DNA of 64,000 nt from Clostridia bacterium (GCA_017397305.1 JAFQJB010000020.1:832-64831), one strand, 5' to 3'; positions 8,293 to 52,125 are shown, counted from the first letter of the stretch. The notes: a model not told the origin generated them from the sequence alone. Numbers and translations are program-made.

Positions 8293-9507
8293 TTAAGTAC
8301 GGTAATCACCGTTTATTTTTACGTAATCGTAGGTTAAATCGCAACCCCAAGCGGTTGAAGAATATTCCCCGTCGTTAAGGTTAACGAGAATTTCAATTTC
8401 CTTTTCAAGCAAAATTTCTTTTGCTTTTTCTTCGGAAAACTCTACCCCGCTACCGTTTTTGCAAACCAAAATCTCGCCTTTTATAGACTTAAACGCAACG
8501 TCAATCTTGTTAACGTCAACGTCCGCACCGCTATAACCTATTGCACAGAGCACGCGTCCCCAGTTTGCGTCAGCACCGAACATAGCCGCCTTTAACAAGC
8601 TTGAACAAATTACGCTCTTTGCAACAATCTTTGCTTGACTTTTTGTTTTCGCGTTAGACGTTTTGCATTCCAAAAGTTTGGTTGCACCTTCGCCGTCACT
8701 TGCAATCATCTTGCAAAGCGCAACGGTAACGCTGTTTAGTGCGGTCATGAACGCATTAAAGTCTTCACCCTCTGCAGTAATCTTTTCATTTCCCGCAAGT
8801 CCGTTTGCAAGCACGGTTACCATATCGTTAGTTGACGTATCGCCGTCAATACTTAACATATTAAAAATATTTTGAATGTCGGTAGACAATGCTTTTTGGA
8901 GCATATCAGCACTTATGCATACGTCCGAAGTGATAAACACTAGCATAGTTGCCATGTTGGGATGAATCATACCGCTACCCTTAGCGATACCACCCATACG
9001 ACAAACCTTTCCACCGATTGTAAACTCAACCGCAACCTCTTTTTTTGCTAAGTCGGTTGTCATAATAGCCTCAGCAGCACTTTCACCGCCATAGGCACTA
9101 AGTCCGTTAACCAACTCGTCCATACCGTTTTTTATAGGTTCGATGTCGAGCGGTTGACCGATAACACCAGTTGATGCTACAACTACGTCGCTTGATTTAA
9201 TTCCCGTCTTTTCGCTGACAAGTTTACTCATTGCCTCTGCAATAACAATTCCGTTTGCGTTGCAAGTGTTTGCGTTTCCGCTGTTGCAAATAACCGCTTG
9301 AGCAATGCCGTCGGCAATGTGGGTTTTAGTCACGGTAAGGGGTGCGCCCTTAACCAAGTTAGTAGTATATACTGCAGCGGTAGTTGCAGGAACTTCACTA
9401 ACGATAAGTGCTAAGTCCTTTTTGGTGCGGTTTTTTCTTATTCCGCAATGAACACCGTTTGCCTTAAAACCTTTTGCAGCGCACACGCCACCTTGAATAA
9501 TCTTCAT
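8293..9507 (-). CDS. argJ: bifunctional ornithine acetyltransferase / N-acetylglutamate synthase
   Basis: KGFKANGVHCGI, autoproteolysis site HPNMATMLVF, and C-terminal INGDYRT. Start set at MKIIQGG (RBS GAGAGGA). Confidence 0.9.
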   Translation of the reverse strand: MKIIQGGVCAAKGFKANGVHCGIRKNRTKKDLALIVSEVPATTAAVYTTNLVKGAPLTVTKTHIADGIAQAVICNSGNANTCNANGIVIAEAMSKLVSEKTGIKSSDVVVASTGVIGQPLDIEPIKNGMDELVNGLSAYGGESAAEAIMTTDLAKKEVAVEFTIGGKVCRMGGIAKGSGMIHPNMATMLVFITSDVCISADMLQKALSTDIQNIFNMLSIDGDTSTNDMVTVLANGLAGNEKITAEGEDFNAFMTALNSVTVALCKMIASDGEGATKLLECKTSNAKTKSQAKIVAKSVICSSLLKAAMFGADANWGRVLCAIGYSGADVDVNKIDVAFKSIKGEILVCKNGSGVEFSEEKAKEILLEKEIEILVNLNDGEYSSTAWGCDLTYDYVKINGDYRT

Positions 9508-13349: not shown

Positions 13350-13696
13350 AGGCTTTATGGTGAAAGATAATTGTTTAATGCTTTGTACTTATCTTATATC
13401 TTTCTAAAGGTTTTGTAGCAATGTGCGGTGATTAGCTAACGTTTACCTACACTACAAGCCTAGATGCTTTGAAGCGAAAAATAATTGTTTAGTGCTTTGC
13501 ACTTATCTTATATCTTTCTAAAGGCTTTGGAGCAATGTGTGGTGATTAGCGACAAGCGGTTTGGTGAGAAAAATACAAGTAGGGCGCGCGTTATTGTGAA
13601 GGAGCATACCTGTAAGGTCTGTAACTGAGCAAAACGCGATGCAATACGCAGTATTTTCCCGCCAAAAATCACCTAAGCATTGCGGAAAAGCCTTAA
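13350..13696. repeat. family A structured intergenic repeat, locus 1 (three partial/complete units)
   Basis: Internal tandem duplication of GAAA(G/A)ATAATTGTTTA(A/G)TGCTTTG(T/C)ACTTATCTTATATCTTTCTAAAGG(T/C)TTTG(T/G)AGCAATGTG(C/T)GGTGATTAGC. Unit 13520-13694 matches 39518-39695. Confidence 0.8.
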
Positions 13697-14725
13697 TTAT
13701 TTAACCGAGCGACGATATTTTTCCGCTTCCCAGTTGTTGATGAAGTAAACTTCTTTTTCGTTCATTTTGGAAACGGTGAGGTTTGCTTTTTTAACGGTGG
13801 TAACAACGAAGAGATATGCAGCAAGCGTTTCTTCTAAAGTGGTTGCTTGCTTAATATCGGTGTTGTAATATACCTTTCCGCCGTCAACGACCAAGGTGTT
13901 TGGTGAGTGTGCGAGAATGTTGTTTAGGTATACGAGTTGGTCGGGATACAAGGGAGTTTCGTCAAGAAGAGCCTTGTCGAGAACGTTTGCTTTAACAAAT
14001 TCGTTAACAAGAGGTGTTTCGGAAACAAAACCCGTTTCGGTTGCCTTTAATGTTACGCTTCTAAAATTGTCTTCCAAACCAAAGTATTTTCTAATGGTTT
14101 CGTTAACGTCGGTGTTAACAGCCTTTACCCTTTCGATATAATCGCCGGTAACAACTAAGCCGTGGTTTTTCATAAAGATAACTTCGGGATATTTACCAGT
14201 TGCTTTTACGTACTCATCGATTTTGTTCATCATTGCAAGGGTAAGTTCAAAACCGGGGTTGATATAAGGCAAGAAGATAAAGCCGAAATCTTTACCGGCA
14301 AAAAGTTTTTCGGCTAGTGTTTCACCTTCTTGACTGCAAGTCAAAAGGTTTGCATATACCGAGTGGGTGTGAATAACGTATTTTTTAAGTATTGCGTGGA
14401 AACCAACTTCAACACTAGGACGAAGGGTCGCCATACCTGAAATTTCAACAACCGAAGTTTTAGAAACTTCCGCACTTTCCTTTTCATAGTCCTTTTCAAC
14501 CGAAAGGTCTACGCTCTTATAATAGGTTTCGATTTTGTTTTTATCAACAGCAACAAAAGCGGTGTTTTCGTTGATGTCAACAAGTCTATACCCTGAAGCC
14601 TTGATAAGCATAGTGCCGTTTTCAAAGTTCTTTACAGACGTGTTACCGCCACCACCTTGGGTGTAGTCGGCACGATTGCCTGCATATTGTGAAATTTCAA
14701 TCAAATCTTTTATGGTTTTTTGCAT
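13697..14725 (-). CDS. class II aldolase/adducin-domain protein (resembles the N-domain of bifunctional aldolase/SDR enzymes)
   Basis: GGGGNTSVK, PSVEVGFH, HTHS and KNHGLVVTG: metal-ligand pattern intact. Confidence 0.7.
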   Translation of the reverse strand: MQKTIKDLIEISQYAGNRADYTQGGGGNTSVKNFENGTMLIKASGYRLVDINENTAFVAVDKNKIETYYKSVDLSVEKDYEKESAEVSKTSVVEISGMATLRPSVEVGFHAILKKYVIHTHSVYANLLTCSQEGETLAEKLFAGKDFGFIFLPYINPGFELTLAMMNKIDEYVKATGKYPEVIFMKNHGLVVTGDYIERVKAVNTDVNETIRKYFGLEDNFRSVTLKATETGFVSETPLVNEFVKANVLDKALLDETPLYPDQLVYLNNILAHSPNTLVVDGGKVYYNTDIKQATTLEETLAAYLFVVTTVKKANLTVSKMNEKEVYFINNWEAEKYRRSVK

Positions 14726-16090: not shown

Positions 16091-16121
16091 CAATTTGCGT
16101 CGCTTCCCGCGACGCAAATTG
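16091..16121. other. perfect 13-bp-stem hairpin in the 5' region of the aldolase gene
   Basis: CAATTTGCGTCGC-ttccc-GCGACGCAAATTG. The T-rich tract lies on the plus-strand side only. Confidence 0.7.
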
Positions 16122-16149: not shown

Positions 16150-16692
16150 GTTTAGGGTTATCCCCTTTTTGCCTTGTTTTATGTGGTTAAAAACAAGTTC
16201 GATAATAAAGGGTTAGTTGCAAGCGTGGGGAGACTCTATCGCACAACCCAAATAACTATTATGCTAATAAAGGATTAGAAACAAGCGAGACAAGGCTCGC
16301 GAAGTGTTTGGGATGAAATTGACCTTATTGGTCATTGAAATCCAAACACTAAGCAGTAACGCAGTATCGCGTAGTTTATAAACCTTTAGATAAAGGGTTA
16401 GTTGCGAGTTTAAGTGGTTAGATACAAGTTGCGGTAGGCTCGCGAAGTGTTTTGGATGAGATTGACCTTGTTGGTCATCGAAGTCAAAGCACTAAGCAGT
16501 AACGCAGTATTGCGACGTTTATAAGCCTTTAGATAAAGGGTTAGTTGCAAGCAGGTCAAGGCTCGTCTATTTTAAGTGGTTAGAAACGAGTTAGGCTAGG
16601 CTCGACCACGCAAAAGGATGAGATAAACCTTTTTGGTTATCGAAGTCTTTTGCGTTGGGCAGTAACGACGCATAACGAAGTTTATAACCGCT
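16150..16692. repeat. family B structured repeat array (partial head plus units B1 16269-16389, B2 16392-16532, B3 16535-16692)
   Basis: Head-to-tail units share AAAGGGTTAG..GGCTCG..long hairpin..AAGCAGTAACG..TTTATAA(G/A)CCTTTAG. A fourth copy lies at 50398-50514. Confidence 0.85.
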
Positions 16693-16698
16693 TAAAAA

Positions 16699-17475
16699 TT
16701 ACATTTGTTGTCCGCCAGTTACGTTAATAGCTTGACCAGTCATGTAACCAGAGTAGTCAGATGCTAAGAATACCATAACGTCTTCGATATCTTTGTATTC
16801 GCAAGAACGTTTCATGGGAACTTGGTTGATATATTTTGCTCTTACTTCTTCTTCGGTTATGCCTTGGTTTGCAGCATATTGTTTGAAGAGGCTGTTAACC
16901 CAAAGGGGTGAATTCAAAAGGTTGCCGGGGCAAATGCAGTTTACTCTTACGCCTGATTCAGCAAATTCGAGTGCTAAGCTTTGAGTCAAGCCTACGCCAC
17001 CAAACTTACTTGCTGCGTATGCGCCGTTCTTGAAGCTTCCCTTTCTACCTGATTTAGAGTTGATTTGGATAATGCTTCCGCTCTTCTTTTCGAGCATGTA
17101 GGGTGCAAATGCTTTAACGGTGTTGAAATAGCCGTTGAGGTTGATGTTGGTAACCAAGCTGAACGCTTCGGGAGAAAGGTTGAAGATATCTCCACTCTTA
17201 ACGATTGCTGCGTTGCAAATAAGAACGTCAACTTGACCCCATTTTTCGATAACTGCCTTTGCAGCAGCTTCCAATTGGTCATACTTAGTAACGTCTACTG
17301 CGAGAGCCATTGCATCGCTAAGTTTTGATGCAACTGCTTGTGCGCCGTCAAAGTTGATATCGCAAACTGCAACTTTGCATCCTTCTTGGTCGAGACGCAT
17401 TGCAAGTGCTTCACCAAGACCTTGGCTTGCGCCGGTTACTACTGCTACTTTTCCTTTCAAATTGATTGAGCTCAT
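16699..17475 (-). CDS. SDR oxidoreductase, sorbitol-6-phosphate dehydrogenase (SrlD)-like
   Basis: TGASQGLG; IIQINSKSG..YAASKFGGVGLTQSLALE...VPMKR...INVTGGQQM is collinear with E. coli SrlD as I recall it. Confidence 0.75.
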   Translation of the reverse strand: MSSINLKGKVAVVTGASQGLGEALAMRLDQEGCKVAVCDINFDGAQAVASKLSDAMALAVDVTKYDQLEAAAKAVIEKWGQVDVLICNAAIVKSGDIFNLSPEAFSLVTNINLNGYFNTVKAFAPYMLEKKSGSIIQINSKSGRKGSFKNGAYAASKFGGVGLTQSLALEFAESGVRVNCICPGNLLNSPLWVNSLFKQYAANQGITEEEVRAKYINQVPMKRSCEYKDIEDVMVFLASDYSGYMTGQAINVTGGQQM

Positions 17476-33864: not shown

Positions 33865-34182
33865 TTATTCAATAAACAGTTTTATTTGTCCTTGCAAATT
33901 AAGTTTCTGAACCAAATCTTCCCATTTTACTTTTTGTCCATTAACTGTAAATCTATGCCATTGTCCATATGTATTAAAGAAGCTTTCGTATACACATAAT
34001 TCACAATTTCCATAGTTTCTTCTTTTATCGTCGCCCATAAAAACTATGCCTATTTCTTGTCCTTGGCTGTTTATTGCTGCGTAACCTTTTTTGCCTCTAA
34101 ATACTTTTTGGATATTATTAATAGTAAACTCTTCAAAATATTTTTTTCTTAATCCTTTGTTGCCTTTTACAGTGACATTCAT
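33865..34182 (-). CDS. hypothetical protein
   Basis: 105-aa ORF with RBS AAGGATG. No recognisable motif. Confidence 0.45.
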   Translation of the reverse strand: MNVTVKGNKGLRKKYFEEFTINNIQKVFRGKKGYAAINSQGQEIGIVFMGDDKRRNYGNCELCVYESFFNTYGQWHRFTVNGQKVKWEDLVQKLNLQGQIKLFIE

Positions 34183-34255
34183 TATTTTTCTTTCATCCTT
34201 TGTTTCAAAATTTTCATTTTTTAGTTGTAATTTTTTAATGTGTTTTTCGCTTCCC

Positions 34256-34543
34256 TTATATTTGTCGACAAAAACAAATATTGTGAGTATCCTTTTTAAC
34301 TTTATCTCTATATGTATATTTAAAAATACTGTCTGTACTTATTTTAAACCACAAAGCAAAAGCCTTTTCGCTTACAAAACATTGAGATGGTTTTAATTGA
34401 TAGTGCCTTAATATTTGACTTAACAAATATCCGCATTGATCTAGGCTTAATTCTTCTTCATTGAAAGTTGATAAAATACATTGGTTTGTTTTAACGCCTT
34501 CTACAAGAGATATAATTATATCCATCACCATGTTTTGTTCCAT
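34256..34543 (-). CDS. hypothetical protein
   Basis: Start set at MEQNMVMD (RBS AAGGGGA). 95 aa. Confidence 0.4.
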   Translation of the reverse strand: MEQNMVMDIIISLVEGVKTNQCILSTFNEEELSLDQCGYLLSQILRHYQLKPSQCFVSEKAFALWFKISTDSIFKYTYRDKVKKDTHNICFCRQI

Positions 34544-34559
34544 TTTGCTATCCCCTTTT

Positions 34560-34787
34560 TTATTTATTCCAGTAGCAACCGCCACCTTTTATTTTTACAA
34601 TAGGTTTTCCATATTCTATCAAATAGTCTACGTTTCTTCCAATAGTCCTTCTATCGCAGGGAATATTCATAGAGTTTAAAACTTTCGTCATACTTGTTAT
34701 AGTTATATGCTTTTCTTTTGAAGAGCCTTTTTCTAACATATCAAGTACATATAAAATTATAGTTTTCTTTGCAATATTCTTTTTCAT
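34560..34787 (-). CDS. small winged-helix (HTH_11/DeoR-N-like) DNA-binding protein
   Basis: ILYVLDMLEKG...ITSMTKVLNSMNIPCDRRTIGRNVDYLIEYGKPI..GGGCY. Confidence 0.5.
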   Translation of the reverse strand: MKKNIAKKTIILYVLDMLEKGSSKEKHITITSMTKVLNSMNIPCDRRTIGRNVDYLIEYGKPIVKIKGGGCYWNK

Positions 34788-34951
34788 AAAAACACCCTCT
34801 ATATATATTATAACAAAAAAATATAGACAAAACTATGACAAGTGTAAAAGTTTTTAAATTTTACTTATTTTTTTTGATTTATAAGGGTTGTAAGTTTTTT
34901 GTCATAGTTCATTTGTTATAATTAAATAGAAAAGAAATCAAGGAGAAATAT

Positions 34952-35608
34952 ATGTCAACTTTTTTTACAATTAAAAAGAAATGTGCCGTTTGTGGAACAG
35001 AAAACGAGATTAAAATCTGGGGGAGCACACATGCGTTTGGATATTGCGATTTAGATTTCCGCCCTGCTGAACAAATGCGATCTTTGTTATATTTGCAGGC
35101 AGAAGAATGCGTAAACTGTGGCTTTGTTGCTACAAATATCGCAAATGACAAATTTGCTAATGTTTATAAGAAAATTGTCAATAGTGATGAGTATAAAAAT
35201 TGTAATAGAATCAAATTTGAGAATGATGTTGCAGAAAAATTTTATAAAATTTATTTATTAAATACTAAACTCAATGATGAAACGGCATCATTTTTAGCGT
35301 TAAGAAATGCTGCTTGGATATGTGATGATGCAGGAGATGAAAAAAATGCGATAAAATGCAGAAAAGAGGCGTTAAAATTTTTAGACGTGTTAATATCAAT
35401 AAAAGATAACAACCTTGAAAAATATATCTTAATAAAAATGGATTTTTTAAGACGTTGTAGAATGTTTAAAGAAGTAATTGACTGTTATAAAGAATTTAAA
35501 TTCACAAATGAGTCGCACTATAAAGTTTATAATTATCAAAAATTTCTTGCACAAATCAGGAATGATAAAATTTCAAATTATGGTGAAGTAATAAATTTTT
35601 TTAATTAA
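34952..35608 (+). CDS. zinc-ribbon plus helical-repeat protein (DUF2225-like)
   Basis: CAVCG...DLDFRP...CVNCGF followed by a helical, TPR-like C-terminal part. RBS AAGGAGA. Confidence 0.5.
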   Translation: MSTFFTIKKKCAVCGTENEIKIWGSTHAFGYCDLDFRPAEQMRSLLYLQAEECVNCGFVATNIANDKFANVYKKIVNSDEYKNCNRIKFENDVAEKFYKIYLLNTKLNDETASFLALRNAAWICDDAGDEKNAIKCRKEALKFLDVLISIKDNNLEKYILIKMDFLRRCRMFKEVIDCYKEFKFTNESHYKVYNYQKFLAQIRNDKISNYGEVINFFN

Positions 35609-35635
35609 AAATTAACTGATGTCTTTTAGTATTTA

Positions 35636-35686
35636 AAACAAAAAGTGAACAAACTCATCTTCCTTTCCAGGTTCGAATTTGTTCAC
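35636..35686 (-). terminator. hairpin plus U-run downstream of tRNA-Ser
   Basis: GTGAACAAA-N24-TTTGTTCAC, followed on the minus strand by TTTTTGTTT. Confidence 0.5.
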
Positions 35687-35689
35687 ATT

Positions 35690-35777
35690 TGGCGGAGAGG
35701 AGAGGATTTGAACCTCCGGTACGTTTCCGTACACACGCTTTCCAAGCGTGCACATTAGACCACTCTGACACCTCTCC
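35690..35777 (-). tRNA. tRNA-Ser (anticodon GGA), CCA encoded
   Basis: Manual fold: acceptor GGAGAGG/CCTCTCC, anticodon arm CACGC-TTGGAAA-GCGTG, long variable arm GTACG-GAAA-CGTAC, T arm GGAGG-TTCAAAT-CCTCT. One mismatch in the D stem. Confidence 0.9.
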
Positions 35778-35961
35778 GTGCCTAAAGTCCGCTAATTATT
35801 CTAATATATTTTCAAAATAAAAGCAAGTCAAATGTGCTTACATTTTAAAATTTAGGGCAAATTTTTTTGTCTTTTGCTTATTCTATTACAAGTACCGTCT
35901 TTACCCCTCTATTGACAAGGAGTTGCAATAATGGTATAATACGCGGGATAGGAGAAAATAT

Positions 35962-36819
35962 ATGATTGTACGAATGTTTAACCTTTGGTATTTTTTCTGG
36001 TTATTATTTGCCAGTGGAACCATTGTGGGTTTATATTTTTTACTGAGGAACAAATCACAAAAGACAAAAAAGTGGACGCTTTTTTCCATACTTTTATTCG
36101 CGCTTATTCTTCACTTTGTAAAACTGTTCTTCCCGCCGTATACCACCAATCAAGAAATTGCGCTTAGGGACAGCTGGTTTATCAATATCTGCGGTGCGAA
36201 CATTGCGCTCTTCCCCTTTTTGTTTTTATTTAAGAACAAATACGTCAAAGATTATATCTTTTACATGGGCATAATCGGTGGCGGGCTTGCCCTTTTATAC
36301 CCCACCGAAGCGCTTAACAAGACCATTGAAAACCCGCTGATTTTTGACACCATAAGATTCTATTTACACCACACCATTCTATTTGCAATTCCGCTTCTTA
36401 TGGTAATGCTTAAAGTTCACCAAATAAGTTATAAACGCATTTTATCTTGCCCCGTCGGGCTTCTTATCGTAATGCTGTTTATTATGCTAAATCAAGTATT
36501 GCAAAGTGAACTTGGCTTTATCCCTTTAAGAAAGGGCGACATCTTCAACATTGGCTACAAAAACACTTCGTTTATATGGGGACCGGGCGACGATTCGCTT
36601 GCGCAAATCTTCGTTATTTTCTGTCCTAAATTCTTTAGGGTAATTCCGTTTGGAGAGTTTGCTGGGCAAGAAAAGTTTTGGCCGTGGTTTTGGCTTATCA
36701 TTCCCGTGTTCATCTACCTTATCCCCTTTGCATTTATGCTGTCGATGATATTCGACCACAAAAAGTTTAGGGGCGACGTTGTAGCAATCTATAAAAAAAT
36801 CTTCAAAAAGACAAACTAA
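35962..36819 (+). CDS. integral membrane protein (YwaF/TIGR02206-like guess)
   Basis: 285 aa, about 7-8 TM segments. RBS AGGAGA. Confidence 0.6.
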   Translation: MIVRMFNLWYFFWLLFASGTIVGLYFLLRNKSQKTKKWTLFSILLFALILHFVKLFFPPYTTNQEIALRDSWFINICGANIALFPFLFLFKNKYVKDYIFYMGIIGGGLALLYPTEALNKTIENPLIFDTIRFYLHHTILFAIPLLMVMLKVHQISYKRILSCPVGLLIVMLFIMLNQVLQSELGFIPLRKGDIFNIGYKNTSFIWGPGDDSLAQIFVIFCPKFFRVIPFGEFAGQEKFWPWFWLIIPVFIYLIPFAFMLSMIFDHKKFRGDVVAIYKKIFKKTN

Positions 36820-37151: not shown

Positions 37152-38576
37152 ATGGCAAAAAGCACAAAAGATATAATGGCACTTATCAAGGAAAAAGGCA
37201 TTAAAATGGTTGACTTTAAGATGGTAGACATCAACGGTCAATATCGTCACGTTACTATTCCTGCGGAAAACTTTTCGGAAGACACAATGAAAAGCGGTAT
37301 CGGTTTCGACGCGTCCAACTACGGCTATGCCGTTGTTGAAAAGAGCGATATGGTATTTATACCCGACCCCGAAACTGCCGTTGTTGACCCCTTCTGCGAT
37401 ATTCCAACCCTTTCAATGACGGGTAACGCAATGATTATCGACAACCCCGAAAACCGCCCGCTCGCTCAGTACCCTAGAAATATCGTGCTCGCTGCTGAAA
37501 AATATATGAAGGACAGCGGTATTGCAGATACCATGCTTATCCTTCCCGAATTTGAATTTTATCTTTTCGACCAAGTTGGTTGGGAAGTTCAACCGAACAG
37601 CGTTGGCGTTTCTTTAGACACTCAACAATCGTACTGGAATAGTGCAGTTGAAGGCCGTGGTGTTATCGTTCAAAAACAAAAGGCTTACCACATTGCAAAA
37701 CCCTTCGACCAATCTTACGAATGCAGAAGTGAAATGTGCCTTCACATGAAGGATGCGGGTATTGATATCAACTATCACCACCCCGAAGTTGCAGCTTCTG
37801 GTCAGTTCGAAATTGAACCTCAACTCGGTCAAATGTCTAAAATGGCTGACGCTACTATGATGATTAAATATATCATTCATAACACCGCGTTAAAATACGG
37901 CAAGTCTGCAACCTTTATGCCCAAGCCCATTTACGGCGAGGCTGGTAGCGGTATGCACGTTCATATGCTTTTACTTAAAGACGGTCAGCCCGTTTTCTCT
38001 GACGATAACGGCTATGCACGTTTAAGTAAAACCGCGCACTACTTTATGGGCGGTCTATTAAAACATATCTCTGCACTCTGTGCGCTCACAAACCCCAGCA
38101 CCAACTCCTTTAAGCGCCTTATCCCCGGTTTTGAAGCACCCGTTACGGTAGGTTACGCAACCTCTAACCGCAGTGCAGTTATCCGTATTCCCGCTTATGC
38201 AAAATCACCCGACAAACGTCGTTTCGAACTTCGTAACCCCGACGCAACTTGCAACCCGTATTTCTGCTATGCGGCAATTCTTATGGCTGGTCTTGACGGT
38301 GTTAAGAACAAGATTGACCCGCACGAAAACGGTTGGGGCCCATATGATATGAACCTCTATCATTTGAGCGACGAAGAAAAGGCAAAACTTCACCACCTCC
38401 CCACTTCATTAGAAGAATCTTTGGATGCTTTGGAAAAAGACCACGACTTCCTTACCGAAGGCGGTGTATTCCCCGAAGAATTGCTTAAAAACTTTATCAA
38501 AACTAAACGCGAAGAATGTAGACAATTATCTGCAATTCCCCACCCCGCAGAGTTTGATAAGTATTATAACCTTTAA
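37152..38576 (+). CDS. glnA: glutamine synthetase, type I
   Basis: 474 aa with a beta-grasp N-domain. EVAASGQFEI, GSGMHVH and NSFKRL motifs. Confidence 0.9.
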   Translation: MAKSTKDIMALIKEKGIKMVDFKMVDINGQYRHVTIPAENFSEDTMKSGIGFDASNYGYAVVEKSDMVFIPDPETAVVDPFCDIPTLSMTGNAMIIDNPENRPLAQYPRNIVLAAEKYMKDSGIADTMLILPEFEFYLFDQVGWEVQPNSVGVSLDTQQSYWNSAVEGRGVIVQKQKAYHIAKPFDQSYECRSEMCLHMKDAGIDINYHHPEVAASGQFEIEPQLGQMSKMADATMMIKYIIHNTALKYGKSATFMPKPIYGEAGSGMHVHMLLLKDGQPVFSDDNGYARLSKTAHYFMGGLLKHISALCALTNPSTNSFKRLIPGFEAPVTVGYATSNRSAVIRIPAYAKSPDKRRFELRNPDATCNPYFCYAAILMAGLDGVKNKIDPHENGWGPYDMNLYHLSDEEKAKLHHLPTSLEESLDALEKDHDFLTEGGVFPEELLKNFIKTKREECRQLSAIPHPAEFDKYYNL

Positions 38577-39321: not shown

Positions 39322-39697
39322 TAAACGCGATGCAATACGTGGTATTCTTCCACGTAGCATTTTGCCAAAAGGCTTTGTAGCGAAAGATAATTGATTAGTG
39401 CTTCGCACGATTTGACGAGAAAAATACAAGTAGGACGAGTGTTCTTTTTGGAGAGCATACCCATAGTGGTCTGTTCGCCAAAAAAACACGAAGTAATACG
39501 CAGTATCTCTTAAAACCAAAAGGCTTTGTAGCAATGCGTGGTGATTAGCGACAAGCGGTTTGGCGAGGAAAATACAAGTAGGGCGCGCGTTCTTGCAAGG
39601 GAGCATACTTGAAAAGTATGTAACAAAAGCAAAACGCGATGCAATACGCAGTATTTTTCCGTCAAAAATCAATTAGATTAAGCGGAAAAGCCTTTAA
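39322..39697. repeat. family A structured intergenic repeat, locus 2 (partial unit plus units 39367-39517 and 39518-39695)
   Basis: Each unit starts AAAAGGCTTTGTAGC. Unit 2b shows 5 mismatches in its first 77 nt against 13520-13596 (manual alignment). The closing arm AAAAGCCTTT overlaps the stop of the SDR gene. Confidence 0.85.
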
Positions 39698-40416
39698 ACC
39701 ATAAAGGGTTGTTTTCCGTCACGATGAATAAGTATCTCGTCAATAACGGCGTTGGTGCGGTTTTTAAGGAGGAACATTACGGCACTTGAAACGTCTTCAG
39801 GCATAATCATTCCGTCGGGGTTTAGGTCGGGGCGAGAAATTTTTACCATATCAGTAAACACACCACCGGGGGAAACGGCGTGCACCCTTATACCCTCTTT
39901 ATAAACTTCGGCTGAAAGCGCTTTGGTAAAGCCCAAAAGTGCGTGCTTTGAAGCGCTATACGCACTTTGCCAAGCATAGCCAGAGTGGGCAACAACCGAA
40001 GCGATGTTTATTATGCTTGCCCTTTTAGAATTTTTTAAGTCGGCTAGGGCAACCTTTGTCAAGTGATAAGGCACTCTAACGTTAACCGCCATCATATCGT
40101 CAAACACCTTCATTTCGGTGTTTTCGAGCAAGGAATTGTGGGTTAGCCCCGCGTTGTTGATTAAAACGTCTAATCCACCCAAAAATGCTTTTGCACTTTT
40201 ATAGCAGTCTTCTAAGGTTTTATCCTCCCTTAAATCGCCCGCAAAATATTCGCACTTTGCCCCTTCTTTTTCAACAAGTTCTTTGGTCTCTTTAAGTTTT
40301 TCTTCTCTCTTACCGCCAACGAGTGCAATATCCACCCCTTCTTTTGCAAGGGCAAGGGCAATCGCCCTTCCTATTCCACTACCAGCACCCGTTACAATTG
40401 CTTTCAAACCTTTCAT
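39694..40416 (-). CDS. SDR-family oxidoreductase (FabG-like)
   Basis: TGAGSGIGRA, NNAG and YSASKHAL motifs. Confidence 0.8.
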   Translation of the reverse strand: MKGLKAIVTGAGSGIGRAIALALAKEGVDIALVGGKREEKLKETKELVEKEGAKCEYFAGDLREDKTLEDCYKSAKAFLGGLDVLINNAGLTHNSLLENTEMKVFDDMMAVNVRVPYHLTKVALADLKNSKRASIINIASVVAHSGYAWQSAYSASKHALLGFTKALSAEVYKEGIRVHAVSPGGVFTDMVKISRPDLNPDGMIMPEDVSSAVMFLLKNRTNAVIDEILIHRDGKQPFMV

Positions 40417-50283: not shown

Positions 50284-50354
50284 TTTTTCTCCTTTAATTT
50301 ATGAAACTATATTTCATCTTTTCCCTATCACTATATACGATATAACAGTTTGCT

Positions 50355-50396
50355 ACCCGACGGCAAAAATGCCGTCGGGTAATTTTTACTTTTTCT
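50355..50396 (+). terminator. GC-rich hairpin plus T-tract with plus-strand polarity (opposite to both flanking genes)
   Basis: ACCCGACGGCA-aaaa-TGCCGTCGGGT followed by AATTTTTACTTTTTC. Confidence 0.5.
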
Positions 50397-50397
50397 T

Positions 50398-50514
50398 AAA
50401 GGGTTAGAAGCGAGTTGCAGTAGGCTCGCGAAGTGTTTTGGATGAGATAAACCTTGTTGGTTATCGAAGTCAAAACACTAAGCAGAAACGACCTGCAACG
50501 ATGCTTATAAACGT
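50398..50514. repeat. family B structured repeat, solitary copy B4
   Basis: The 77-nt core 50414-50490 differs from 16428-16504 at 6 positions (manual alignment). It ends at the stop codon of the frdA-like gene. Confidence 0.85.
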
Positions 50515-52125
50515 TTAAACGTTGGGTTGCTTTGTATAGTTCGGCAACAATTGAGGTGACAACTTAGTTGCGTTAATACCAGCATCCTTTAATTCCTTAT
50601 CGAATGCTTTAACGTGGTCTAAGGTGAGTTCTTTAACCTCAACGTCTTTATAAATCTTACCTACGCTCTTACCTGCGTTTCTACCGAATACGATAATGTC
50701 GAGGAGAGAGTTACCCATAAGTCTATTTCTGCCGTGGATTCCCCCTACTGCCTCACCTGCAACGAAGAGGTTGGGAACGGTAGTGGTCATGCCGTCAGCC
50801 GAGATATCAAGTCCACCGTTTTGATAGTGGAGTGTGGGATAGATAAGAATGGGGTCTTTTCTAATATCGATGCCGTATTTACCGAACATGCGGAGCATTG
50901 CGGGAATACGTTTTTCGATAGTGCCTTCACCGTGAATAATATCAATCATCGGGGTGTCAAGCCATACGCCTTCACCATCGGTGGTCTTGATACCGTTGTT
51001 GCGTTTTTTGCATTCTCTAATGATAGAAGATGCGGTCACGTCACGGGTTTCAAGCGAGTAAACGAATGCTTCGCCGTCTTTATTTACGAGTTGTGCGCCG
51101 AGTGAACGAACTTTTTCGGTAACGAGTGCACCGAAGATTTGAGTGGGTTCAGCAACGCCAGTGGGGTGATATTGAAGGGTGTCAGCATAAAGGAGTTTTG
51201 CACCTGCTCTATAACCTAATACCAAGCCGTCAGCCGTTGCGCCGTAGTGGTTAGAGGTTGGGAAACCTTGATAGTGAAGTCTACCTGCACCACCAGTTGC
51301 AATGATAACGGTTTTTGCCTTTGCAACGTAAATGTCTTTGGTTTCCATATTGAGAAGAACTGCACCAGCCGCCTTGCCTTCTGTATCCTTAATAATTTCG
51401 ATAGCAGCGGTAAAGTCAACAACGGGGATTTGGCGGTTCAACACTTCGTCACGAAGGGTTCTCATAATTTCCGCACCCGAATAGTCCTTACAAGCGTGCA
51501 TACGTTTTCTACTAGTACCGCCACCGTGGGTGGTAATCATAGTGCCGTCTGCTTCCTTATCGAACATAACGCCGAGTTCGTTGAGCCATTTGATAGCATC
51601 GGGAGCATCGTTAACGAGCTTATATAAAAGTTCGTGCTTTGCAGCAAAGTGACCGCCACCGAAAGCGTCTAGATAGTGAATAGCGGGGCTATCGTTGGGT
51701 TTATCAGCCGCTTGAATTCCGCCCTCTGCCATCATGGTGTTTGCATCACCGATACGGAGTTTGGTTACCATCATAACGTTTGCGCCAGCATTGTGCGCTT
51801 CGATAGCAGCAGAAGAACCTGCACCACCGCCACCGATAACCAAAACGTCTACGTCGTAGTCGGGTTTAGAGAGGTCGATATCTAAATCGAGCACTCTTGA
51901 TTTACCTTGCAAAAGGTCAGCAAGTTCGTGCAATACTTTTCCGCCCTTGTTGGGACCAACTTTCAATTCTTCATAAGCAGAAGTTATGTAGTCGGGGTGG
52001 TTTTCTTGCAAAACCGTTTGCTTTTCGTCCGCAGTCATTCTTGCGAACAAGTTTTGAAGTCTTTGTTCTCTGGTCGCTTCGACCTTCTTCATTGAATCTA
52101 ATTGTTCTTGTGTATACTTATACAT
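50515..52125 (-). CDS. soluble fumarate reductase / succinate dehydrogenase-family flavoprotein (FrdA/TfrA-like, non-covalent FAD type)
   Basis: VLVIGGGGAGSSAA; ANTMMAEGG (Asn where FrdA has the FAD-linking His); LQYHPTG; TEKVRSLGAQLVNKDGE; HYQNGG; AGEAVGGIHGRNRLMGNSL. Confidence 0.8.
   Translation of the reverse strand: MYKYTQEQLDSMKKVEATREQRLQNLFARMTADEKQTVLQENHPDYITSAYEELKVGPNKGGKVLHELADLLQGKSRVLDLDIDLSKPDYDVDVLVIGGGGAGSSAAIEAHNAGANVMMVTKLRIGDANTMMAEGGIQAADKPNDSPAIHYLDAFGGGHFAAKHELLYKLVNDAPDAIKWLNELGVMFDKEADGTMITTHGGGTSRKRMHACKDYSGAEIMRTLRDEVLNRQIPVVDFTAAIEIIKDTEGKAAGAVLLNMETKDIYVAKAKTVIIATGGAGRLHYQGFPTSNHYGATADGLVLGYRAGAKLLYADTLQYHPTGVAEPTQIFGALVTEKVRSLGAQLVNKDGEAFVYSLETRDVTASSIIRECKKRNNGIKTTDGEGVWLDTPMIDIIHGEGTIEKRIPAMLRMFGKYGIDIRKDPILIYPTLHYQNGGLDISADGMTTTVPNLFVAGEAVGGIHGRNRLMGNSLLDIIVFGRNAGKSVGKIYKDVEVKELTLDHVKAFDKELKDAGINATKLSPQLLPNYTKQPNV

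Follow-up and report, generated by a model that had tools for sequence, protein, structure and literature searches.

Repeat units in the window and in related genomes

The 64,000-nucleotide stretch of Clostridia bacterium DNA analysed here (the window; GCA_017397305.1, JAFQJB010000020.1:832-64831) carries, among genes for proA, PHP, SDR and aldolase, an array of repeat units belonging to what the first-pass annotation had called family B. Three full units occupy 16268-16697 and a fourth lies at 50396-50519, all of them on the + strand (Table 1). This arrangement of tandem units with a distal fourth copy, first noticed by inspection, is confirmed by alignment and by a core pattern, GGATGARATNRACCNNNNNGGTYATYGAARTC, which has four matches in the window, all on the + strand, where none is expected (100 shuffles). 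An exact 32-nt core is common to the four units. Repeat finding and alignment were used for the units, their coordinates being set by eye from the sequence; the stem and loop sequences and the G-T positions quoted earlier were correct on direct check, and the + strand is indeed antisense to the flanking genes.

The array also contains decayed units and orphan arms. Because the orphan arm at 16391-16408 pairs with the 3' end of B2, we consider B2 a mosaic unit, and the break point of the fragment at 16534-16565 recurs in other genomes. The 3' end of B3 and the reverse-complement stop codon of the SDR gene (stop at 16699-16701, gene at 16699-17475, - strand) are 1 nt apart. At B4, TTAAA occurs twice (50396-50400 and 50515-50519), and its right copy includes the stop codon (50515-50517) of the gene for a FAD-binding protein (50515-52125, - strand). 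Three other contigs encoding the same SDR protein are identical to the window in the 16-kb array as far as they reach, which over that reach rules out strain variation in the array.

Table 1. Positions of family-B units and fragments in the window, and succession of structural elements within the unit
Feature	Position	Strand	Remarks
Two decayed or truncated units	16150-16265	+	missed by the covariance model
Decayed piece 1	16178-16202	+	5'-arm-like, TTTATGTGGTTAAAAACAAGTTCGA
Decayed piece 2	16206-16236	+	head TAAAGGGTTAGTTGCAAGCGTGGGGAGACTC, then a tail-like remnant without core
B1, full, 121 nt	16268-16388	+	TAAAGG...CCTTTA ends; 138 bits with model R1
32-nt core of B1	16311-16342	+	loop GATGA/GAAAT, apical stem GATTGACC/GGTCATT, loop TTATT
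Orphan 5'-arm fragment	16391-16408	+	TAAAGGGTTAGTTGCGAG; pairs with the 3' end of B2
B2	16409-16531	+	core intact; P2 halves from different subfamilies (recombinant)
Orphan 5'-arm fragment	16534-16565	+	ends at AAGGCTCG
B3, full	16570-16697	+	18-nt terminal arms, 89% complementary
B4, including target duplication	50396-50519	+	inserted DNA is 50401-50514
32-nt core of the other units	16454-16485, 16616-16647, 50440-50471	+	
Outer stem P1	outermost	+ orientation	variable, often TTTAAGGn/nCCTTAAA
TTAG opposite ATAA	inside P1	+ orientation	conserved; gives a G.A mismatch
Stem P2, 4 bp	next inward	+ orientation	covaries: AAAC/GTTT, AAGC/GCTT, ATGC/GCAT, TTGC/GCAA
Small purine loop	between P2 and P3	+ orientation	
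Stem P3, 7 bp		+ orientation	few discrete variants, common to several species
Asymmetric loop AAGGCTC opposite AG(T)AACGnn	inside P3	+ orientation	conserved
Stem P4	inside the asymmetric loop	+ orientation	variable
5x5 loop GATGA/GAAGT	inside P4	+ orientation	
Apical stem GATnRACC/GGTYATC, loop TTKTT	tip	+ orientation	

A core-pattern scan of species-representative genomes returned at least 117 matching stretches, and among the matches listed all lie in metagenome-assembled genomes (MAGs) of Christensenellaceae, Clostridiales or Clostridia from the human or ruminant gut, in about 50 assemblies. A profile search of the fetched loci together with the window (0.92 Mb) recovered 210 copies, 171 of them near full length. 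The units measure 121-128 nt, have 34-47% G+C and are non-coding. A phage or plasmid origin is ruled out by the complete lack of matches in 2.9 million viral contigs, PLSDB plasmids and INPHARED phage records. With Rfam 15 at gathering thresholds, the whole window yielded one tRNA elsewhere and nothing at the repeat locus, and a permissive search of the repeat region gave a best E of 0.44, no hit coming near its family's gathering score, in agreement with the earlier failure to match the repeat to a known family.

Small coupled ORFs of the MIRU kind can also be discarded: unit lengths are not multiples of three and, across the central 105 nt, copies with at least one open frame number only 63 of 102 in gene sense and 31 of 102 on the opposite strand. 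In the gene-sense consensus, the other two frames stop immediately at T-TAA-G or TTA-TAA; with one frame open and immediate stops in the others, an insertion can therefore end or extend the upstream protein.

Fold of the unit and its internal loop

Each unit had been described as carrying a two-part hairpin. The hairpin is there, but its central 48 nt are only the tip of a fold that involves the entire unit: all of the ~125 nt are predicted to form one long imperfect hairpin closed by the unit's own ends, a near-palindrome with imperfect terminal inverted repeats (TTTAAGnnnTTAGAAAC... and ...GTTTATAAnnnCTTAAA; in the consensus, TTTAAnGGnTTAGAAAC... and ...GTTTATAAGnnnTTAAA). Both strands are predicted to form the long stem-loop through pairing of the 5' and 3' ends, with z-scores of -3.6 to -5.9 for the + strand and -2.3 to -5.4 for the reverse strand. 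In 102 copies from other genomes, 30 of the 39 predicted pairs show double changes, 93.1% of cells are paired versus 74.4% after shuffling, and the covariation score reaches 0.473 versus 0.142 when shuffled and at most 0.12 when partners are slid. Strong covariation thus persists well outside the window, upholding the view that structure is conserved over sequence, and the many compensatory changes likewise support the claim that the units are not debris. Template-switch correction of quasi-palindromes is a known mutational process, and covariation in a DNA palindrome can arise from it or from matched ends. Covariation here therefore says less in favour of an RNA function than the same signal would if the RNA were not a palindrome.

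The two strands are not equivalent. The mRNA-sense strand folds worse in 97 of 102 copies with RNA parameters (mean -35.4 versus -41.0 kcal/mol), and the + strand is the more stable one in 100 of 102 copies with DNA parameters. The stems of the + strand contain 79 G.T/T.G against 38 A.C/C.A oppositions, bearing out the remark that wobble pairs favour this strand, and 164 purine-purine against 71 pyrimidine-pyrimidine mismatches. The usual strand-specific deamination bias would have the opposite sign to the wobble asymmetry observed.

The GA-rich internal loop had been compared with kink-turn and loop-E-like motifs, to which it is similar in having tandem G.A/A.G beside a Watson-Crick helix (5'-UGAG/5'-CGAA). 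The likeness goes no further. The loop is a symmetric 5x5 one made of G.U, A.G, U-A, G.A and A.G (5'-GAUGA/5'-GAAGU), with tandem G.A present and the 3-nt bulge absent, and AGUA, from the AGUA/GAA bulged-G signature, is found on neither loop strand. In addition, the invariance of the loop, although correctly described for the window, does not extend to the whole family, as sister subfamilies carry other sequence at this position (e.g. GGTAACAAT...ATTGTTAGTG). The symmetry, the missing bulge and the loop replacement rule out a kink-turn, and the missing AGUA/GAA with bulged G rules out loop E/sarcin-ricin.

Placement behind stop codons and turnover of copies

Using genes called with a simple greedy ORF caller, we examined 145 singletons or arrays (94 single, 39 double, 10 triple and 2 quadruple); mixed orientation occurs in none of the 57 loci with more than one copy. 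Wherever genes are present on both sides, the gene at the 3' side of the element is almost always on the opposite strand (106 of 110 arrays, P about 5e-27), and the distance between the match end and the stop codon of that gene has a median of -2 nt (quartiles -5 to +3). The mRNA of this gene would consequently carry the reverse complement of the + strand. The stop codon falls at discrete spots, namely the TAA of the conserved TTA-TAA-AC (20/98), the TAA of the terminal T-TAA-G (20/98), and a third position 4-7 nt upstream of the outer stem. TAA is the stop of 89 of 93 element-adjoining genes versus 79% of the other genes of the same loci (P = 2e-5).

A terminator of the gene transcript was seen within 140 nt in about 20 of 134 arrays and, where seen, lies beyond the element; in convergent contexts, a hairpin with an A run on one side and a T run on the other stands just past the element. 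The element itself is ruled out as an intrinsic terminator, its hairpin having T before and A after on either strand (TTTAAG...CTTAAA). No sigma-70-like promoter was found on either strand at either window site. The gene-end placement, the terminators located beyond and the lack of a promoter make co-transcription of the element with the upstream gene likely and an independent + strand RNA unlikely. Just past the repeat arrays of the window there are also G+C-rich hairpins (16091-16121 and 50354-50381) with a T run on the + strand, oriented against both flanking - genes; the one at 50354-50381 is not part of the element, since it is kept in locus L124, which has an empty site.

These data bear directly on the hypothesis of the first-pass annotation, namely that each unit gives an independent structured non-coding RNA of the + strand, which would be antisense to the genes on either side and would contain a kink-turn- or loop-E-like protein-binding loop. 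The better fold of the + strand, the 79:38 wobble ratio, the purine-rich conserved internal loops of that strand and the strong covariation would all agree with it. Nevertheless, the gene-end context (106/110), the terminators beyond the element and the absence of a promoter-like site oppose a functional + strand RNA. At convergent sites, the sequence immediately upstream of the element is taken up by a terminator for + transcripts, so that a promoter would not fit there, and the units adjoin each other and the stop codon without any 3' terminator. The loop is symmetric and lacks the 3-nt bulge, the insertion polymorphism and target duplication described below exist, and the covariation can come from the matched ends or template-switch correction of a DNA palindrome. 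We therefore hold such RNAs to be very improbable.

Strand preference has a further aspect. Elements adjoin genes of the local majority strand in a ratio of 95:4, for a baseline of 86% (P = 8e-4), and in convergent pairs they sit on the majority-strand side in a ratio of 18:2 (P = 2e-4), which hints at a replication-strand component in placement, the 8-kb majority being only a proxy for replication direction.

Comparison of filled and empty sites shows how copies came to lie where they are. Homologues of the FAD-binding protein encoded next to B4 (50515-52125) were fetched with their DNA from six relatives (89-97% protein identity), and the B4 unit is missing in all six. In the gene sense, the window reads ...CAACG-TTTAA-[ACGTTTATAAGC...GCTTCTAACCC]-TTTAA-GAAAAAGTAAAAATT-ACCCGACGGC..., where the second TTTAA is followed by GAAAAAG and then by a hairpin; the empty site of L124 reads ...TGCTA-TTTAA-TAAAAGGTTAAAAATTCGATT-ACCCGATTGC..., with a single TTTAA and the same downstream hairpin. 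A single TTTAA followed by the same downstream sequence is found in L121, L123 and L124, relatives at 97%, 90% and 89% protein identity. Target duplications of 2 bp (TA) to 5 bp (TTTAA) all fit, and the stop codon forms part of the target. Insertion into the loop of a pre-existing palindrome or terminator, a reading that would explain the variable outer stem, is rejected for B4 because the empty sites do not have the inner part of that stem. The window gene ends at 8296, 11908 and 38557 are empty, whereas L090 and L115 are filled there, providing two cross-species pairs that show the same junction, at 8296 (filled in L090, junction directly after ACTTAA) and at 38557 (filled in L115, junction directly after CTTTAA). 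The insertion site is a TA within a T-rich TTAA or TTTAA that is the stop codon or lies 0-8 nt after it.

Units also recur at the same gene ends in different genomes. We counted 56 pairs at orthologous gene ends among the 145 arrays; scattered at random over a few thousand genes, the units would by our estimate form only a handful of such pairs. Except where coding identity exceeds 90%, units at orthologous sites resemble each other no more closely (69-72%) than random units do (68.5 +/- 7.1%). The gene end at B4 holds three different subfamilies in the window, L067 and L037, with closer relatives empty, which indicates repeated insertion at favoured gene ends and discards, as a general rule, the vertical inheritance of one ancient insertion per gene end. 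In two pairs at 91-92% identity, one genome has a family-B unit where the other has a unit with the same basal module and a different interior; the newer unit adjoins the gene, and the gene-proximal half of the older is missing. That the newest unit is always the gene-proximal one was rejected as a rule, the proximal unit being the more intact in only 30 of 51 arrays (not significant). Arrays are head-to-tail and include truncated older units, orphan arms and mosaic units such as B2. In the queA-tgt spacer of L013 (2320-2480) and L045, the last ~10-15 nt of queA recur in similar form beyond a first, divergent unit and give a pseudo C-terminus before the second unit, which suggests that arrays can also enlarge through tandem duplications that take in the gene end.

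An autonomous copy, with the same ends around a transposase gene, was not found in the 0.92 Mb, where matched ends 40-4000 bp apart were only pairs of separate units. The first-pass annotation had stated that recognition of the repeat as the terminal repeat of a known MITE or IS would count against a functional RNA. The inverted termini, target duplication and empty sites go in that direction in spirit, but the MITE family they reveal is a new one, not a known one.

Nature of the element and its known counterparts

Bacterial MITEs, as characterized by Delihas, are shorter than 200 bp, A+T-rich, with inverted termini, terminal TA, target duplication and long stem-loops containing A.G mispairs (PMC2229807). 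Family B shows the small size, A+T-richness, copy number, inverted termini, target duplication with terminal TA and presence/absence polymorphism of such elements. The closest to it in build are ERIC/IRU of enterobacteria, Correia/NEMIS of Neisseria and RUP of pneumococcus, MITEs of 100-160 bp, and thus of similar size, that are likewise A+T-rich, have inverted termini, TA ends, target duplication and, as predicted for family B, a stem-loop pairing the 5' and 3' ends with A.G-type mispairs, and sit in transcribed spacers behind genes. Family B differs from them in having no sequence similarity (no Rfam match) and a different host clade, a near-fixed orientation (106/110) and a position pinned to the stop codon, several families sharing the basal module only, and an outer stem that can include the last codons of the gene. 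RUP has IS630-Spn1 as partner IS, whereas none was found for family B in the 0.92 Mb.

Other systems resemble it in part. REPs are found no more than 20 bp from the 3' end of the ORF that precedes them, and their tag can supply the stop codon (PMC3733652). High copy number, persistence over long periods and gene-end position are shared with REPs and REPINs, as is the organization of REPINs as hairpins of ~100 nt thought to move as single strands. However, a REP is a palindrome of 20-40 bp, rich in G+C, that bears an unpaired GTAG or CGTC tag, and REPs usually alternate in orientation, whereas the family-B unit is a single 125-nt A+T-rich hairpin with a TTAG/ATAA base, one orientation and an apparent target duplication; the short tagged palindrome typical of REPs and REPINs is absent from it. 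An end-pair search of the loci showed no RAYT gene flanked by repeats. Integron attC sites are also imperfect palindromes directly 3' of an ORF, with structure kept over sequence, conserved unpaired bases and an ORF-antisense strand that folds better. By contrast, family B (gene-sense ends TTATAAAC and GTTTCTAA, in which the AAAC/GTTT part varies) has no RYYYAAC/GTTRRRY core sites, no cassette arrays and no integrase nearby, follows ordinary operon genes and forms tandem units without an ORF in between; the missing core sites, integrase and cassette array rule out attC. UG27 arrays stand beside a reverse transcriptase (RT) and two accessory genes in prophages (bioRxiv 10.64898/2026.09.22.753630). 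The RNAs of this RT system are similar in their tandem ~150-nt units, in the structure kept despite diverse sequence and in a cDNA strand that forms hairpins, but family-B units are dispersed, follow housekeeping genes and have neither an RT nearby nor a viral-contig match, and this lack of RT context rules out an array of the UG27 type.

Family B is abundant, clade-specific and unusually strict in its placement, and it is neither debris, nor a plus-strand RNA gene, nor a kink-turn. On balance, we favour as the probable explanation a new family of ~125-bp non-autonomous mobile elements of the MITE/REP kind that is co-transcribed and exerts an effect as RNA; the part of this reading that concerns a mobile palindromic repeat deserves more confidence than the combination, and the RNA effect less. 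The element would be moved in trans by an enzyme encoded elsewhere. Transcription of the upstream gene would run on through it, and the mRNA would contain the + strand in reverse complement. The transcript would form a long hairpin with the stop codon in its foot or touching it, such that the terminating ribosome would have to open the foot. By analogy with ERIC in Yersinia, whose effects vary with orientation and require ribosomes to open the hairpin (PMC2229807), the family-B hairpin might, depending on its orientation, alter how the mRNA 3' end is processed or how stable it is. Constraint on mobilisation, on an RNA role, or on both may lie behind the conserved stems and loops.

Several features fit this favoured explanation less well. 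A cut-and-paste enzyme acting on a nearly palindromic target leaves both the near-absolute orientation and the confinement to stop codons unaccounted for; AT-rich spacers offer many other TTAA sites. The strand expected in the mRNA is the poorer folder (97 of 102 copies) and would place A.C where its complement has G.U. The invariance of the 32-nt core far exceeds the needs of end recognition. Where queA stops, and likewise a gene ending GKIQRNKL*, the final 2-4 codons are paired in the outer stem with the distal end of the element, and this stem covaries between species (e.g. a synonymous AAT-to-AAC change is matched 120 nt away); such a stem cannot derive from a direct target duplication and points either to selected pairing or to template-switch correction. 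The misfits keep two other readings alive, a domesticated 3'-end module and a single-strand-DNA element of the REPIN/attC type.

According to the first, the unit would be a cis-regulatory RNA, a family-wide 3'-UTR or intercistronic module kept mainly for its use to the host, with a foot that encloses the stop codon and conserved loops that bind a dedicated protein or RNase, mobility having only spread it. The 56 orthologous pairs among 145 arrays, with the same gene ends occupied in many species, would be accounted for in this way, and so would the hairpins that stay intact (93% paired) though the flanking genes are 72-90% identical, the invariant 32-nt core, the covariation of the outer stem with synonymous codon changes and the strict orientation; the orientation- and ribosome-dependent effect of ERIC offers a precedent (PMC2229807). 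Yet in close relatives the corresponding gene end has neither the unit nor any visible substitute, orthologous sites hold unrelated subfamilies, the 'conserved' loop is replaced in sister subfamilies, and the mRNA-sense strand is the poorer folder, with A.C exceeding G.U. We thus find domestication unlikely, if worth retaining.

In the second, the folded purine-rich + strand, which is the template strand, would be recognised as single-stranded DNA by an HUH enzyme (RAYT or IS200-IS605-like) or by a tyrosine recombinase, as are REPINs and attC bottom strands, and orientation would follow replication and not transcription. The greater stability of the + strand with DNA parameters (100/102), the predominance of purine-purine mismatches with conserved G.A positions, the majority-strand bias (95:4 for a baseline of 86%; 18:2 in convergent pairs) and the existence of at least three families with different interiors and one base module, TTAG-P2-nAG...CG-nn-P2'-ATAA, would be in agreement with this mechanism, as would the REPs that likewise occur at stop codons and can supply them (PMC3733652). 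The duplicated TTTAA at B4 nevertheless has the appearance of a target duplication, and insertion of the IS200/IS605 type produces none. By eye there is no GTAG/CGTC tag or attC core site, and no RAYT or integrase was seen in the loci. The active strand of IS200/IS605 elements is on the lagging-strand template, as established for IS608. Here that strand would be the gene-sense one, which is not the better folder. Accordingly, we judge a single-stranded-DNA element distinctly unlikely.

It is also conceivable, with a low probability, that mobility is real and that the unusual traits together belong to one system as yet undescribed for bacterial MITEs. These traits are the fixed orientation, the anchoring to stop codons, the recurrence of insertions at particular gene ends in different lineages, the outer stem that pairs with the last codons and tracks their synonymous changes, the several families with one basal module and the better-folding template strand. 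Such a system could be a strand-specific insertion mechanism, single-strand or coupled to transcription or translation, that finds gene ends or, alternatively, a clade-wide 3'-end control module read by a dedicated protein.

Whichever way it moves, a high-copy repeat located behind a few percent of the genes has practical consequences. It can break assemblies, several contigs ending inside a unit, and it can alter C-termini and stop codons in annotations. Annotation pipelines will miss it, because no database holds a model for it. What is known of Christensenellaceae, a heritable gut family associated with health, comes mostly from MAGs. Among the contig ends at L119, L120 and L121, those of contigs with the SDR gene lie inside the repeat array, and L121 stops about 50 nt past the stop of the FAD-protein gene, at an empty site; family B may be a cause of assembly breaks in Christensenellaceae MAGs. 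The copies are ready markers for strain typing and, if the hairpin modulates mRNA 3' ends in the manner of ERIC, dozens of housekeeping operons would be affected in their expression. Their strict orientation and stop anchoring also make them a clean natural system in which to study how small mobile elements choose gene ends.

Other hairpin repeats accompany family B. The window contains a second long-hairpin family, probably the family A of the first-pass annotation, at 13525-13695, 39404-39522 and 39530-39700 (+ strand), which adjoins the reverse-complement stops of genes 13697-14725 and 39694-40416 (both - strand) following the same placement rule and gives weak matches (16-24 bits) with the family-B model. 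L016, L102, L106 and L113 reveal at least two further families with the basal module TTAG-P2-nAG...CG-nn-P2'-ATAA and unrelated interiors (...GGTTGTGTACGGTAAGTACACGCCC... and ...CCGTACAAAGAGTACGCGTAC...). The basal-module families look like a superfamily moved or read by one factor. Elsewhere in the window, the stretch 34000-36000 is low in G+C (29-35%) and includes an 85-nt tRNA gene with a long variable arm (35693-35777, - strand), perhaps marking a hot spot of integration or DNA of foreign origin.
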